Of a DNA stretch of 4,458 nt, positions 81 to 4,458 are shown piece by piece (the stretch's first letter is position 1; the number at the start of each line of letters is the position of its first letter). The stretch is from a virus (lineage: Duplodnaviria > Heunggongvirae > Uroviricota > Caudoviricetes). Under the pieces are notes generated by a model that searched no databases, was not told the DNA's origin, and was given only the letters and a program-made list of their open reading frames with translations. A program made the position numbers and the translations under genes. Location: the IMG/VR virus record IMGVR_UViG_2740892270_000002. The stretch is one strand, 5' to 3'.

Positions 81-1328
81 TTAACTGATCGGCATTACAC
101 CACCGGGACGCGGATTCATATCTTCCAGGTCGCGGCAGTCATTGGAAGAGTAAATTCCCCAGTTGATCCCGGTGGCGTAGGCTTCAAAACGGGACTTCAT
201 ATCCCCGCGCAGTAACGCCCCGGCGTTAAATTTGGCGTAATAAACGCCCTGCTTACTTTTTCGTACCAGTCCGGTGTTGATCCGCTGTTCGATGCGGGTC
301 AGATACGGCACCAGTGAATAGTTGATAAATCCCAGCCCCAGCTCTTCGATATTGTTGAAGGTGGCGCGATCGGTGTTCTGCACCATGTGCAACGGCACCC
401 GGAACAGACGACAGATTTCTTCCAGCTGAAACTTGCGGGTTTCCAGGAACTGACTGTCCTCGGCGTTCAGCGCCATCGACTTCCAGTCCAGCCCCATTTC
501 CAGAATCATCGGGCGGTGAGCATTGCCAAGCCCCGTGTGACACTCCTCAAAATCTTTCTTCAGACGCTCGTAAGCATCCGGCGTGAGCTTTTGTTCCGTA
601 CGCAACACACCGGATGTCACCGCACCATTACTAAACAACCTGGCACCGTGCTCCTCGGTTGCCGCTGCCAGTGAAATGGCCTCACGCGCATACGCAATGG
701 GATTCAGCCCGACAAGTCCATCCAGCGTCAGGGTGCGCACATGCCAGATTTCATTCTGGGTCAACACATCCACGGAACCATCCGGAAACGTCACCTGATA
801 AACCGGCTGCCACTGGCTGTTCAGCTTCGGTTCCACACAGCCCGGATCTATCGGAAGAAGCTCCACCACTTCTCCCAGTGCCTTTACCTTGTAGGCGTAA
901 AAATTCCCCCGTAGACACAGGCAGACAATAACCAGCTCCCAGAATTCCTGCGGTGTCATGTAGCCATTAGGTTTTGCCGAAACCAACTTATGCAGTCGTT
1001 CATCCACCGCCCGTGTTTTCAGGGTACCGCTGATTTTGTAGAGACTGCAGGGCAGCATACCAACAGACTCTGCCAGCACCCTGACGCAAGAATAGACCGC
1101 CGTCAGGCGCATGGCCCGCTGGCTACTGATCCGCTTTCCGGTATAGGTGTCGTATGACAGCCCGATAGCATCAGCAGTTCTGCTGGCGTGGTCACCGGCA
1201 CATCGCTTTTTCGTTGAAATAATCCCGAAAAGAACACTATTTACCTCCGCCGACAGACTGCCGTGTACGGTCGAGATATCGCGCCACCAGCCACGACCAG
1301 AACAGGCACAGCGCCCCGGCAACAACAA
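81..1328 (-). CDS. Phage portal protein, HK97-family-like; stop at 81..83 is clear, start codon uncertain
   Basis: 415-aa minus-strand ORF. The motif [26 protein letters not shown] resembles the conserved N-proximal region of HK97-type portal proteins (recalled from memory, not searched), and the gene sits immediately downstream of the large terminase as in HK97-like head modules. The ORF-track start at 1326..1328 is TTG (the first three codons are TTG TTG TTG), has no good Shine-Dalgarno, and overlaps the small ORF 1237..1419 by 92 nt in another frame. The next in-frame ATG is at 1110..1112 (M73), which would remove conserved N-terminal sequence. The real start probably lies between about 1112 and 1328. 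Confidence 0.85.
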
Positions 1329-1419
1329 AACCCGCCGGGGGATAAATCAGCCAGGCACCATACGCCAGCAAAAGCGCACCCAGCACGCCCACCAGAGGCG
1401 CGAGAATCAGCATGATCAT
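1237..1419 (-). CDS. Small hypothetical membrane protein (60 aa, two predicted transmembrane helices) between large terminase and portal
   Basis: ATG start at 1417..1419 preceded by GAGGT (1424..1428), 11 nt after the large terminase TAA stop. The translation [60 protein letters not shown] has two hydrophobic stretches separated by YPPAG and a basic C-terminal tail. Codon usage (CTG, GCG, GGC rich) looks like real coding sequence. I do not recognise a named homolog. Confidence 0.5.
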
Positions 1420-1430
1420 AATTACCTCAG

Positions 1431-3164
1431 TTAAAGCGAGCGGATCCCGTAGGACTCAATGTGGTCAGACAGCGTGTCTTCTTTCTCGTACAGCATGGCT
1501 CTGCCAACCGCCATAATCAGCGCAACTGCACCATCGATTTTGTTTTCCGCCTGCTCTTTGACGGGTTTCACCACATCATCGTTACCCGGCATGTTTTTGC
1601 CGACCACGTTGCCGATACACCAGGTCATGATGGGATTGCCGTCATGATGAAAACGTCCCGATTCAATCGCTGCTTCCAGCTCTTTCATCGGATCGGACAT
1701 ATTGGTGAAGTTCTGGACGATAGTGACGGGATTCAGGTCTTCATCAGCAAGGTCATGTGACAACCCGGTCGCCCCGAAGGGGTCGATGGGTGACTCACTG
1801 ACCGGGCTGATTTTGTTCGCCGCTTTGGCCTCCTCGAGGATGTAGCGATAATCCACCTCCGCACCATCGGTAACGGTCAGAACGCCCATTTCCACCCATT
1901 TCTGAAAGCGTTCGGCTGTCCGTCGATCTTCATTTTTCTCGACGCTGTACACCGTGTCATACGGTACCCAGAAACGCGGGGCCACACTGTAGTAATGCGT
2001 TTTACCGTCAATCTCGCGGGTATAAAGTCGCGCCATGCTGTTCATATCCAGCTTACGCGCCAGGTCAAAGGCCAGAATGCACGGCTGCCCCTCGAACTGC
2101 TCAAGGGTCAGTGATTTATCCTCGCAGCTCTGCCAGCTCACCAAGTTGAAATACGCCGAACGCGCCGACACCCAGATATTGAGGTGTTTTGTTTTAAAGA
2201 CGTTTGCCAGACGGGCGTTATTTTTCGCACGCTGCTGCTGACTTAACAAAAATTCGCGATAAACCGACACGCCAATATTTGGATTGGCTTTTTCCAGCAC
2301 CTGCGGGCCGGTCCAGTCGTCACCTTCATCAACGGTATAGATGATCCCGAACAGTTCATCGTTAGGCACCGAGCCGTTGAGCATCTCGATGACTTCCCGC
2401 CGCTTGTCGTAGCACGGCCCCTCAATGTTGTACCCGGCGGTGGTGATGGCCCACATCAGTGGCTGACGTCGCGCCCCCATCCCGGTAAGCATTGTGGTAT
2501 AAAGCGCATCGGTGGCATGCTCGTGATATTCATCAACCACGGCACAGTGGGGTGATGAACCATCACCTGGGTTGCCGATCAGCGGTTCAAACCGCGCGCC
2601 ATCCTCCGGACGGTTCATGTTTGAGGCGTTAACCTCAATCCCGAACGCTTCCGTCAGCATGGGTGTGCGTTTACACATCAGTCGCGCCGGGCGAAAGACT
2701 TCCCACGCCTGTTTCTCTGTCGTGGCACCGGAATACACTTCCGCGCCAAACTCGTTATCACAGGCAAAACAATACAGGGCAACACCGGCAGAGATTGCTG
2801 ATTTGCCGTTCTTACGGGGGATTTCGGTGTACACCTCCCGGAAGCGGCGCAACCGGGTGCCTTTATTGACCCAGCCAAACGCACAGCAGATCACAAATAG
2901 CTGCCACGGCTCCAGCGTGATGGGCATCCGTTTGAATGCCCACTCCCCCTTGGTGTGCGGCAACAGCTGAATAAATTTCGCGGCCCGTTCAGCCAGGTCC
3001 TTGTCGAAGCGGTAACGAAACGACTTACTTTTTTCCGCCATCAGGTCATCAAGATGGCGCTGGCAGGCCTGAATCACAAACTGGCAGGCAACAATCTTTC
3101 CGCGCACGACATCCCGGGCATACTGATTTGCAGCATTTACGTTGGGGTAAGATTTCCGGCTCAT
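1431..3164 (-). CDS. Phage terminase large subunit (ATPase plus nuclease)
   Basis: 577-aa ORF, the size expected for a large terminase. It has a Walker-A-like segment ([12 protein letters not shown]) in the N-terminal half and an acidic C-terminal half of the kind seen in terminase nuclease domains. Its ATG (3162..3164) overlaps the small terminase TGA stop (3161..3163) as ATGA, implying translational coupling. Gene order small terminase, large terminase, portal. Confidence 0.95.
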
Positions 3165-3550
3165 GATTCGATAATTTTCAGAAACGGGTTAGTGGCTTTC
3201 TTCTGCCCCGCCAGGCCAATCAGACGCTGGCGGCTGCTGGGGTCGAGTCCGAGCATTGCCCCCGTGCTGCTCATCTCGGACTCCTGTTCTTTTTTGGCGG
3301 TCAGCTCCGGATTTTTGACCCTGCCGCCCATTGCACCGGTGATGGTGTTGCCCTGTATGGCAATATTTTTCACGGCACGTCGCCAGAACTCATAGGCCAC
3401 GCACCACCGCTCAAGTACCGCCAGGTCAGTCACGCACAGCAGGCCCTGACCGCAGAGTTCTTTGGTTGTCAGTTGCCACATGATCGTGGCGAGAGGGAGA
3501 TCTTCTTCAGCGAACCACTCTGGTGGCTCAACACCTTTGATGGGCGTAAA
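3161..3550 (-). CDS. Phage terminase small subunit (P27-family-like), 5' end lost in the assembly gap
   Basis: The C-terminal portion [31 protein letters not shown]...[33 protein letters not shown] matches the conserved core of P27-type small terminase subunits as I recall it. The reading frame stays open upstream of the ORF-track ATG (3479..3481) all the way to the N-run, encoding ...[23 protein letters not shown] before MWQL. The true start is therefore most likely inside the gap, and the 106-aa ORF-track call is truncated. Stop TGA at 3161..3163. Confidence 0.85.
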
Positions 3551-3815
3551 NNNNNNNNNNNNNNNNNNNNNNNNNNNNNNNNNNNNNNNNNNNNNNNNNN
3601 NNNNNNNNNNNNNNNNNNNNNNNNNNNNNNNNNNNNNNNNNNNNNNNNNNNNNNNNNNNNNNNNNNNNNNNNNNNNNNNNNNNNNNNNNNNNNNNNNNNN
3701 NNNNNNNNNNNNNNNNNNNNNNNNNNNNNNNNNNNNNNNNNNNNNNNNNNNNNNNNNNNNNNNNNNNNNNNNNNNNNNNNNNNNNNNNNNNNNNNNNNNN
3801 NNNNNNNNNNNNNNN
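3551..3815. other. Assembly gap (265 N)
   Basis: Uninterrupted run of n. It interrupts the HNH gene and the small terminase gene. All ORF-track translations containing X (3462..3884, 3469..3834, 3473..4030 and the tail of 3528..4028) are artefacts of reading through it. Confidence 0.99.
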
Positions 3816-4028
3816 ACGCAGACACAACTGACACAGACCTTTATCGCGCTTCAGAATACGGGCACGAATCACCGTCCATTTTGAGCCATAGCCACGCTGG
3901 TGGCGGCTCAGTCCGCGCTGGTGCTGCACCCAGCCTTCACCGCGATGTTTATCGCAGTAACCCGAACTGTCTGTGGTTGTACCTGCACATCCACGCTTAC
4001 GGCAGGCACGTGGGATTAGTGATGGCAT
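3816..4028 (-). CDS. Phage HNH endonuclease, terminase-associated type; N-terminal 71 aa only, 3' end lost in the gap
   Basis: ATG at 4026..4028 with GAGGT four nt upstream. The N-terminus MPSLIPRACRKRGCAGTTTDSSGYCDKHRGEGW carries a Cys/His-rich cluster, followed by GYGSKWTVIRARILKRDKGLCQLC, which is the typical lead-in to an HNH motif. Its position directly upstream of the small terminase gene is the standard arrangement in HK97-like cos phages. The ORF-track C-terminus YAHQRC (stop at 3528) is on the far side of the gap, so its frame is unverified and is probably small terminase sequence read in the wrong frame. Confidence 0.8.
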
Positions 4029-4070: not shown

Positions 4071-4458
4071 CTACTTAATGCACTGAGTGCGGATATACTC
4101 CTGTGCCCCTTCCAGTTGCATCTGCATCGTCATCAGCCGCTCTCTGAGGGTGAAATAATCCCGTTCAGCGGTGTCTGCCAGTCGGGGGCTGGTTGCATTA
4201 TCCACGCCGGAGGCGGTGGTGGCTTCACGCACTGACTGACAGACTGCTTTGATGTGCAACCGACGACGACCAGCGGCAACATCAGCGCGCAGAGTTTCAT
4301 TTTCAGCTTTCGCATCAGCTAACTCCTTCGTGTATTTAGCATCGAGTGCATTAACATCACGCTGTCTCTGCTGCATGTCAGTAATGGTTGCGTTCGCCAG
4401 CTTCAGTTCTCTTGCGTTTTTGTCGCGCTGCTCTTTGTAGGTAATGGCGTTATCACGG
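4071..4458 (-). CDS. Rz: Rz i-spanin (lysis protein), 5' end outside the window
   Basis: The translation ...[128 protein letters not shown] closely matches phage lambda Rz as I recall it. The frame is open from the window edge (4458) to the TAG stop at 4071..4073. The ORF-track start at 4376 is an internal Met. Confidence 0.95.
4133..4315 (-). CDS. Rz1: Rz1 o-spanin (outer-membrane lipoprotein), embedded in Rz in the +1 frame
   Basis: The 60-aa translation [60 protein letters not shown] has a lipobox (VVVGC) and a proline-rich stretch, closely resembling lambda Rz1. It lies entirely inside the Rz reading frame, the classic embedded-gene arrangement. Confidence 0.9.

Follow-up and report, generated by a model that had tools for sequence, protein, structure and literature searches.

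The closest described relatives of the gene under study are YmfR of the cryptic E. coli element e14 (b1150, an 'IPR020297 domain-containing protein'), L37 of phage phiP27 and Sb3 of phage ST64B, which belong to the same family as the protein analysed here and share its length of 60 aa, its terminase–ymfR–portal gene order and its sequence motif. The YmfR gene itself is already known and annotated and is not new: PGAP calls the gene in this place ymfR, the region is carried by 1604 of 5426 complete E. coli genomes, the annotations of phiP27, ST64B, SfI and SfII read 'membrane protein', and PHROG, where the family (phrog_502) is likewise a 'membrane protein', assigns it to the category 'moron, auxiliary metabolic gene and host takeover'. 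A literature search found no functional study of YmfR, Sb3, L37, the mycobacteriophage homologues or any 'membrane protein' encoded between terminase and portal. The gene is often missed altogether (SfV, BtCS33), filed as a moron or mislabelled, and the portal start codons beside it are mis-called; several GenBank records give the ymfR homologue as 'head-tail joining protein W'. Lambda gpW, a soluble head-tail joining protein of 68 aa, is indeed encoded in the same slot between A (terminase) and B (portal), but the ymfR product is a hydrophobic hairpin without any sequence relationship to it, and the 'W' labels seem to go by gene position and are probably annotation errors. What is new with respect to the searchable literature is a hairpin with a single motif that is tied to the HK97-type portal by codon overlap and co-inheritance.

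The window, i.e. the whole 4,458-nucleotide stretch of caudoviral DNA that was analysed (IMG/VR record IMGVR_UViG_2740892270_000002), carries ymfR on its minus strand at 1237..1419, as an ORF of 60 codons plus TAG that runs from an ATG at 1419-1417 to the stop at 1239-1237. Directly upstream in the same operon lies the gene for the large terminase subunit TerL (577 aa, 1431..3164, minus strand), identified by its TerL_ATPase and TerL_nuclease domains and by phrog_9, and downstream follows an HK97-family portal gene (81..1237, minus strand; PF04860 at E 3e-107, TIGR01537). The TerL stop codon TAA (1433-1431) is separated from the ymfR ATG by the 11-nt spacer CTGAGGTAATT (1420..1430, minus strand), which contains the ymfR Shine–Dalgarno (SD) sequence GAGGT 4 nt before the start codon; the spacing is 11 nt in every enteric relative, too. 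At the other end the portal SD sequence GGAGG (1244..1248, minus strand) is embedded in ymfR codons 57-59, which puts these bases to dual use and accounts for the conservation of a C-terminal GG[KED] in the YmfR family. In the adjoining TAGTG (1235..1239, minus strand) the ymfR stop shares one base with the portal GTG start (1237-1235), an arrangement also found in relatives, and judging from the sequence this is a termination–reinitiation junction. GC content by codon position in the ymfR ORF (0.68/0.48/0.67) is similar to that of TerL (0.58/0.41/0.65) and also to that of TerS. An antisense ORF of 95 aa on the plus strand (1147-1434) was considered and rejected, being open in just 5 of 29 alleles.

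An earlier note, made from the letters of the window, had described the 60-aa ORF, its distance of 11 nt from the TerL stop, its GAGGT and two hydrophobic helices, all of which are borne out: hydropathy places the two segments at residues ~2-25 and 27-46, and AF2 predicts helices at 2-25 and 27-57 (pLDDT 74). The same note had been unable to assign the ORF to a known family, which a profile search readily does; residues 1-55 align with positions 3-57 of the 58 in phrog_502 (E 2.8e-28, 98.2 bits), and the ORF is thereby placed in the YmfR family of E. coli e14 b1150, phiP27 L37, ST64B Sb3 and PHROG 502. The window protein is 88-97% identical to E. coli proteins named YmfR or hypothetical. Other resources were less informative: neither the ORF nor any of 126 family members had a meaningful match in Pfam or NCBIfam, with 0 Pfam matches for the 126 members and, for the ORF at E<=1, just weak transporter-like matches and no gpW or holin family. 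A sequence-profile search of the PDB returned chance matches to membrane proteins only (E of at least 0.05), and a Foldseek search of the PDB with the AF2 hairpin found no match at E<=0.001, as expected for a query that is a bare two-helix hairpin.

The ymfR ORF has a GRAVY of 1.16, which exceeds that of every other unmasked ORF of 40 aa or more in the window, and its two hydrophobic stretches are separated by Y-P-P-A-G. This turn belongs to a signature motif between the helices (codons 20-31, 1327..1362, minus strand) which across the family reads YGAWLIYxPAGFIVxG, and in an alignment of 126 members G35 is invariant (126/126), while G21 (125/126), P28 (114/126) and W23 (105/126) are nearly or largely so. 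Selection acts on this frame, as dN/dS is 0.39 in the ymfR frame versus 0.93 and 1.60 in the two other frames of the same strand, and variable sites are distributed 25/16/39 over its three codon positions. The ORF is a genuine protein-coding late gene, whose product is a two-helix hairpin of ~60 aa with a 5-residue Y-x-P-A-G turn. The N-terminal tail has a net charge of +1.25, the turn is about neutral and a basic residue follows helix 2 (R/K47 in 83 of 126 members); by the positive-inside rule, the predicted topology is that of an inner-membrane hairpin whose termini both lie on the inside (N-in/C-in). The tails, which are predicted to be cytoplasmic, are the least conserved parts of the protein, and residues 53-54 are hypervariable among near-identical prophages.

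The YmfR family is old and widespread. An exhaustive search recovered 173 representative clusters of relatives, nearly all of them 45-120 aa long with the YGAW..PAG..G motif, and each of the 126 aligned members matches phrog_502. A scan of DNA with a hand-made degenerate pattern that used the peptide motif only, so that the neighbouring genes were not selected for, yielded 79 distinct ORFs, whose sources are Alpha-, Beta- and Gammaproteobacteria as well as an actinobacterial-type lineage. Among close relatives (TerL 99-100% identical) the ORF is intact in 79 of 80, and it is intact even in e14, where terminase and portal have decayed, and in the window, where the portal is frameshifted. Only 8 of 19 sampled phages have the hairpin gene, and many HK97-type modules lack it, among them those of HK97 itself, Bcep176, Xanthomonas NP1, Javan100 and phiBT1. 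The gene is therefore not generally required for portal function; it is conserved but dispensable. The earlier remark that this slot is usually empty thus holds for HK97 itself and fails for the many HK97-type modules in which a hairpin relative resides. The idea that hairpin-less portals carry the hairpin as an N-terminal fusion was rejected: 10 of 10 such portals have no comparably hydrophobic N-terminal stretch, their best 19-residue hydropathy mean being <=1.6 versus 2.0-2.7 (as a 15-residue mean) in YmfR helix 1.

Of 70 loci from the motif-only scan, 68 have a gene for an HK97-family portal next to the hairpin on its downstream side, TerL precedes the hairpin in 62 of 71, and most of the apparent exceptions among the neighbours were resolved by tblastn; in loci L144, L203, L213, L217, L232 and L234 extra DNA lies between TerL and the hairpin, which still adjoins the portal. 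Inheritance follows the same lines: 19 pairs of loci have TerL proteins that are less than 50% identical, yet hairpins more than 80% and portals at least 89% identical, while 0 pairs combine portals below 50% with hairpins above 80%. Phage SfV has a TerL that is 99% identical, but a divergent hairpin and a different portal have been swapped in together. The SfV hairpin, a 53-aa ORF in which BLASTP with YmfR finds nothing, is visible as a homologue with the family HMM only, where it scores 26.4 bits as compared to at most 7.3 for 500 shuffles. Upon exchange of TerL by recombination the hairpin stays with the portal, and the reverse was never seen. The portal start overlaps the hairpin stop by 1 or 4 nt in 74 of 76 loci, across phyla; in 53 of the 76 the small ORF contains an SD-like sequence within its 3' end, and in the remaining 23 there is none. 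In comparative terms, hairpin and HK97-type portal gene thus form one genetic unit, and the pairing occurs in phages of Proteobacteria, of mycobacteria and, probably, of Bacillus. In three hairpin-less phages, HK97, Vibrio 1247 and Paenibacillus NHScienceFair, it is the TerL stop that overlaps with the portal start, and the hairpin ORF would therefore have been inserted into an existing coupling chain.

Several alternative readings of this unit were weighed, one of them being that there is no gene at all, that the portal starts further upstream and that the 60-codon frame is fortuitous. In the window the main portal frame is indeed open up to a TTG at 1328 and overlaps the ORF, but this extension is artefactual and exists only because of a 1-nt deletion near 1175/1176, 20 codons past the portal start, which shows as a gap in alignments with phiP27 and ST64B and as a result of which the 5' piece of the gene ends at 1103 and the main frame runs to 81. 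The deletion is confined to the window and its identical IMG/VR contig, and the site is intact in 155 other loci. A portal start within the ORF, which the earlier note had named as an observation that would speak against the gene, was looked for in the relatives, and the ORF stands: in phiP27, ST64B and e14 the portal begins at the GTG overlapping the stop of the small ORF. With the selection pattern following the 60-aa frame and conservation throughout the family, the comparative data have already refuted this reading, whose probability is practically nil. It is unlikely, but conceivable, that the ORF is a device acting in cis for translation control or localisation, which hands ribosomes from TerL to portal and sets a low portal dose while the peptide has little or no function in trans; a membrane-inserted peptide may even drag the polysome and nascent portal to the membrane. 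A mere spacer ORF would not keep G14, G21, W23, P28 and G35 from Enterobacteria to mycobacteriophages, nor is a dN/dS of 0.39 expected of it, and Bacillus phage BtCS33, with a gap of 16 nt between hairpin ORF and portal and a strong SD for each of the two, shows that the coupling is not obligatory. What a cis-acting device would explain well is the near-universal stop/start overlap, including the 23 loci that have no SD-like sequence for the portal, the location of the portal SD inside the last codons of the ORF, and the TerL–portal overlap in the three hairpin-less phages.

Two further alternatives give the peptide a different role at the membrane. Small inner-membrane proteins of phages often target the host or competitors, e.g. 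HK97 gp15 and T4 Imm, and YmfR could likewise be a moron-like peptide expressed from the late operon that excludes superinfecting phages, inhibits a membrane protein or a membrane-bound defence of the host, or depolarises the membrane, with no part in head assembly. Morons are said to be autonomous cassettes that bring along a promoter and a terminator, are active in the prophage and are patchily distributed among close relatives. The HK97 gp15-type morons resemble YmfR in being small inner-membrane proteins, in their case for superinfection exclusion, encoded among virion genes; they differ in that ymfR is near-universal in close relatives, overlaps the portal by its codons and has no flanking promoter or terminator signals, since a consensus scan of the minus strand around 1237-1419, a simple scan from which weak promoters may escape, detected no sigma-70-like promoter and no intrinsic terminator. 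The dispensability of ymfR in many lineages, its intactness beside decayed or frameshifted head genes in e14 and the window, and its PHROG category speak for a moron-like role, whereas a gene that is expressed only late could not protect a lysogen, the position of the gene and its codon overlap with the portal are fixed in phages facing envelopes as different as those of Proteobacteria, mycobacteria and a Bacillus host, and the hairpin is co-inherited with the portal. No defence-system model matched either, the 2 marginal LeoBC matches of the family among the PADLOC models (E 0.0035) being taken as noise. The mRNA of ymfR rises along with that of the other e14 genes (PMC10012262), as it would for a gene that is not autonomous. 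Overall a host- or competitor-directed function of this kind seems unlikely, if conceivable, and the 'moron' category of PHROG is not supported by synteny. The earlier note had raised a moron for superinfection exclusion and proposed presence in only a subset of related prophages as its sign; the comparison of synteny was carried out and revealed the opposite of a patchy distribution, and the other option considered there, an unrecognised packaging or head accessory, is the better fit of the two. Because of its portal linkage, coupling, co-inheritance, dN/dS and the lack of flanking signals ymfR is not a classical moron, and it gives the impression of belonging to the head module and not of being a stray gene. 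A lysis protein, i.e. a class II holin, pinholin or antiholin-like hairpin linking the timing of lysis to head assembly, is very improbable. Class II holins such as phage 21 S68 have two transmembrane helices, an N-in/C-in topology and a charged C-terminus, and YmfR is similar in its size, its predicted topology and its basic C-terminal tail, and its M-I-M start recalls dual-start motifs. The second Met is not conserved, though, as other alleles begin MFLIIL or MILMIL, and YmfR differs from the S68 type also in its place in the head module: the remnant of the lysis cassette (Rz/Rz1, 4071-4376) lies ~2.7 kb away, separated from ymfR by the HNH, TerS and TerL genes, and an endolysin is not found beside the gene in any locus examined. 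Holins are notoriously diverse, while the YmfR family has the same motif and the same place in the genome in all phyla concerned, and no Pfam holin family is matched at E<=1.

The best explanation, which we regard as quite possible if still short of probable, is that ymfR, a genuine late gene that forms a unit with the portal gene, acts together with the portal in assembly. The late head-gene mRNA would be translated as a chain from TerL via hairpin to portal, and ribosomes that terminate on the hairpin would therefore reinitiate on the portal. The hairpin would sit in the inner membrane, its two ends facing the cytoplasm, and could serve as a membrane anchor or assembly chaperone for nascent portal subunits and aid formation of the dodecameric portal ring from which the procapsid is nucleated at this membrane. 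Taken by itself, this specific role as anchor or chaperone is less likely than not and is put forward tentatively. Since there are HK97-like lineages that manage without the hairpin, it would be a factor for efficiency or fidelity and not a universal requirement. A membrane requirement is not known for HK97 procapsid assembly, which counts against a role in portal assembly. Conservation is lowest in the very tails that would have to contact the portal, and linkage and coupling would equally be expected of a gene that exploits a well-expressed late slot or mainly sets portal translation; both points weigh against such a role.

That the PHROG 502 hairpins constitute a widespread, ancient and portal-specific assembly factor of the inner membrane is, as a generalisation, rather doubtful. 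If it were true, the cytoplasmic membrane would be the site of portal ring nucleation, procapsid initiation or packaging for much of the HK97-type phages, namely for prophages of enteric bacteria and of Alpha- and Betaproteobacteria, for Vibrio phages, for cluster J mycobacteriophages and for some phages of Bacillus. A hairpin working with the portal would point to a membrane step in the assembly of the best-studied capsid lineage, with a single 60-codon gene as a handle on it.

With regard to its immediate relatives the window copy is just another allele that shows no essential difference from those of e14, phiP27 and ST64B; phiP27 L37 differs from the window protein in one residue. A start of portal or procapsid assembly at the membrane has so far been documented essentially for T4 only, where the genes for gp40 and the portal are not known to lie side by side. 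T4 prohead assembly begins at the membrane-attached portal and needs the viral chaperone gp40, with which the membrane-bound gp20 portal initiator is assembled (PMC9958956). The role that hairpin and gp40 may have in common is that of a phage factor that ties the formation of the portal ring to the inner membrane. As far as this can be tested gp40 is not homologous to the hairpin, and the likeness between them would be one of function.

Every gene of the window lies on the minus strand. The lysis cassette ends with Rz (4071-4376; Pfam Phage_lysis, E 2e-45) and the Rz1 lipoprotein gene (4133-4315; E 6e-20), the latter nested in the +1 frame of the Rz spanin gene, directly upstream of an HNH-endonuclease-like ORF (3528-4028) and the genes for a P27-type small terminase (TerS, 3161-3481) and the large terminase (TerL, 1431-3164). 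These are followed by the 60-codon small ORF (1237-1419) and an HK97-family portal gene (81-1237). A run of 265 Ns at 3551-3815 masks the 3' part of the HNH-like ORF and probably also conceals 5' sequence of the small terminase gene; as read in the window, TerS is 106 aa long, versus 156-164 aa annotated in phiP27 and ST64B. The junction upstream of the small ORF is as the earlier note had described it: 11 nt (CTGAGGTAATT) separate the TerL stop TAA from the ATG at 1419, which GAGGT precedes at a distance of 4 nt. The two hydrophobic stretches of the product were likewise recovered, with YPPAG between them and a GRAVY of 1.16. Overlooked at the time was the other end, where the stop codon overlaps the GTG start of the portal gene (TAGTG) and the portal Shine-Dalgarno sequence, GGAGG, sits within the last codons of the small ORF.

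The small ORF had been assigned to no known family, a view that no longer holds. Its product matches PHROG 502 'membrane protein' (E 2.8e-28), with no model in Pfam or NCBIfam; every defining feature of YmfR/PHROG 502 that was tested is present, and its membership is almost certain. The DNA is 90-95% identical to phiP27, ST64B, SfI, SfII, SfIV and 118970_sal3, in whose records the ORF (L37, Sb3) is labelled a (putative integral) membrane protein. PGAP uses the name ymfR for the gene in E. coli, 1604 of whose 5426 complete genomes have the region, and the K-12 copy is b1150 of the cryptic prophage e14, flanked by a terminase remnant and the portal remnant beeE. The small ORF is already known as an annotated gene without an assigned function, and by itself the feature is ordinary. 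Some GenBank records (ON470584, ON470603, ON470580, PQ793804) call a ymfR homologue 'head-tail joining protein W', a name apparently carried over from lambda on the basis of position, not homology; despite these labels, a gpW identity was rejected for the small ORF.

A word-indexed search gave 166 clusters at 90% identity, from Escherichia, Salmonella, Shigella, Citrobacter, Yersinia, Hafnia, Klebsiella, Enterobacter and Buttiauxella, and an exhaustive phmmer search of 1.84 billion representatives gave 173 clusters at 50% identity, nearly all of 45-120 aa and with alignments spanning both helices. All 126 aligned members match PHROG 502 and none matches Pfam. The turn is sharply conserved (roughly [SA]YGAWL[IV]Y.PAG[FY]IV.G), the consensus residue being kept in 122 (G14), 125 (G21), 105 (W23), 114 (P28) and 126 (G35) of the 126; judged by this alignment, hydrophobic composition alone cannot account for the motif. 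The family proteins P0141, P0150, P0168 and P0179 carry the whole hairpin as a tandem duplicate of ~100-120 aa with two YGAW..PAG copies, which may point to a hairpin dimer as the functional unit. Searches of the PDB and of defence-system models returned no structure or model covering the family, and a fold search with the predicted hairpin was uninformative.

The 28 distinct enteric alleles yield a dN/dS of 0.39 for the small-ORF frame, versus 0.93 and 1.60 for the two remaining frames; their variable sites fall 25/16/39 by codon position, and an antisense ORF over the small ORF shows no conservation. The small ORF is a real, conserved protein-coding gene, and the chance that it is not a gene is negligible. 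Across loci L006-L085, with TerL 99-100% identical, nearly all variation in the hairpin protein is at residues 53-54 (window 1257-1262; RQ, QS, QM, QL, QP, QT, QQ). This looks like a single hypervariable NNG codon ~20 nt upstream of the portal start and may stem from a mutational hotspot or else from selection, whether on the tail or on the portal translation-initiation region. AF2 with 38 homologues predicts helices at 2-25 and 27-57 (pLDDT 74). Net charge is +1.25 in the N-tail and ~0 in the 5-residue turn, with a basic residue after helix 2. This is the pattern that the positive-inside rule expects of a hairpin with N-in/C-in topology, and the protein would insert in the inner membrane in this orientation. 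A simple promoter scan found no promoter-like or terminator-like site flanking the small ORF on its strand, and in K-12 ymfR transcripts increase together with the rest of e14 (PMC10012262). Expression is presumably late, and the small ORF is not an autonomous cassette.

Genomic context was scanned in IMG/VR and one genome per GTDB species with a degenerate DNA pattern back-translated from the peptide motif alone, so that neighbours were not selected for. The scan, which detects only members retaining the motif, returned 151 loci with 79 distinct small ORFs, from hosts including Mangrovibacter, Acidovorax, Xanthobacter, Castellaniella, Bradyrhizobium, Reyranella, Sulfitobacter, Shinella, Roseateles and Halopseudomonas, and reached an actinobacterial-type lineage (L170, L223). 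The same-strand gene downstream of the hairpin is an HK97-family portal in 68 of 70 cases and the one upstream a large terminase in 62 of 71, with no cross-hits (portal match upstream, TerL match downstream). By tblastn, most apparent exceptions are ORF-calling problems in GC-rich DNA; thereafter the upstream gene lacks an assignment only in the two actinobacterial-type loci, and only one locus, a 1.4-kb contig, lacks both neighbours. Six loci have TerL and the hairpin set apart by 0.3-1.5 kb of other DNA (including a DUF6527 gene in L203), with the hairpin still abutting the portal; its close association is thus with the portal and not with the terminase. Two sequences with Gram-positive labels, a Bacillota MAG (L224, JAEWTL010000102; TerL 98.8% identical) and 'Enterococcus phage Efm 3-10' (OR844959, 1764 bp), are 96-99% identical in DNA to the enterobacterial prophage module of the window; contamination or mislabelling is the probable explanation, not a genuine Gram-positive host.

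The portal start codon overlaps the hairpin stop in 74 of 76 junctions, by 1 nt (TAATG, TGATG, TAGTG) in 59 and by 4 nt (ATGA-type) in 15; an SD-like sequence is absent upstream of the portal start in 23 of the 76, and, counted from the TerL stop, the hairpin starts at -4, -1, +8 or +11. Read as sequence, such junctions are the signature of a termination-reinitiation chain from TerL through the hairpin to the portal. Among 31 complete triples, 19 pairs combine TerL below 50% identity with hairpins above 80% and portals of at least 89%, and no pair has a diverged portal with a conserved hairpin. The converse is seen in SfV (L003, NC_003444), where TerL keeps 99% identity to that of the window up to ~80 nt before the stop and hairpin and portal both differ thereafter. 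The SfV slot holds an unannotated 53-aa ORF (2289-2450), in ATGA overlap with the TerL stop; with the family HMM this ORF reaches 26.4 bits, against 7.3 for the best of 500 shuffles. The annotated SfV portal start, GTG 2392, falls within this ORF, which ends 11 nt past a GTG at 2440 preceded by AGGGGG; the latter is the more likely start. The small ORF and the portal gene form one genetic unit, bearing a sequence signature of translational coupling.

The portal gene of the window is itself short of 1 nt at ~1175/1176, 20 codons past its GTG start (GAACT-GCTGAT versus GAGCTGGCGGAT in phiP27 and ST64B); its 5' piece ends at 1103 and the remainder runs on in another frame. Because of this loss the portal frame reads open up to a TTG at 1328, within the small ORF, and a portal start there was rejected as an artefact. 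The deletion is confined to the window and a 100%-identical IMG/VR contig (L006, UViG_2734482591_000008), the site being intact in 155 other loci, and means either that the prophage is defective or that an error was made in sequencing.

With the phiP27 portal as tblastn query, 2069 phage records were matched, and the slot was inspected in 19 named phages, a small sample for prevalence. A hairpin ORF with a significant HMM score is found in phiP27 (84 bits), Ralstonia YO106_2 (29.7), SfV (26.4), Mycobacterium phage Klein (gp11, 24.5), Vibrio K315 (21.4) and Klebsiella vB_VIPKPNMC05 (18.1), and the same architecture with a weak score in Vibrio Va_178/90_p41 (7.3) and Bacillus BtCS33 (4.3; unannotated, with its own SD). 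In BtCS33 (L246, NC_018085) a 366-nt 'gap' from TerL to the annotated portal start at 1678 holds this 53-aa two-helix ORF (1323-1484, SD GGAGG), and portal similarity starts at TTG 1501 (SD GGGAGGTG), 59 codons upstream of the annotated start. The other 11 of the 19, including HK97, Bcep176, Xanthomonas NP1, Javan100 and phiBT1, have no hairpin ORF, BP-4795 and Gordonia Gudmit carrying a hydrophilic small gene instead. Four hairpin subtypes match 20, 18, 57 and 82 phage records, portal-adjacent every time, the 57-record subtype including cluster J mycobacteriophages such as Omega; given these matches and the hairpin-less phages, the gene counts as widespread and old, yet dispensable. The hairpin-less portals examined have no hydrophobic N-terminus, and hence no hairpin-portal fusion.

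What this means for function we infer throughout. A role tied to the head or portal is probable, ahead of that of a moron, which the earlier note had considered and which is not borne out, the small ORF showing neither a promoter or terminator of its own nor a patchy distribution among close relatives. More specifically, it is possible, by analogy, that the hairpin and the portal act together, the hairpin providing a membrane anchor or a chaperone for nucleation of the portal ring or procapsid. That it serves mainly as a cis-acting device for coupling or localisation is unlikely, since such a role is weakened by the conserved peptide motif; a membrane peptide directed against the host or a competitor, exploiting the late operon, seems no more plausible in view of the cross-phylum linkage to the portal and the lack of expression signals. 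A description of the cross-phylum rule, a hairpin glued to the HK97-type portal, was not found in the literature searched; this rule is the added value of the analysis and opens the way to a cheap, decisive experiment.

A holin-like lysis factor is very improbable: the small-ORF protein has its predicted topology in common with class II holins, but the genomic context is different. For action with the portal, the reading that we prefer, the sole documented analogue is the membrane-bound gp20 initiator of T4, which depends on gp40 (PMC9958956).
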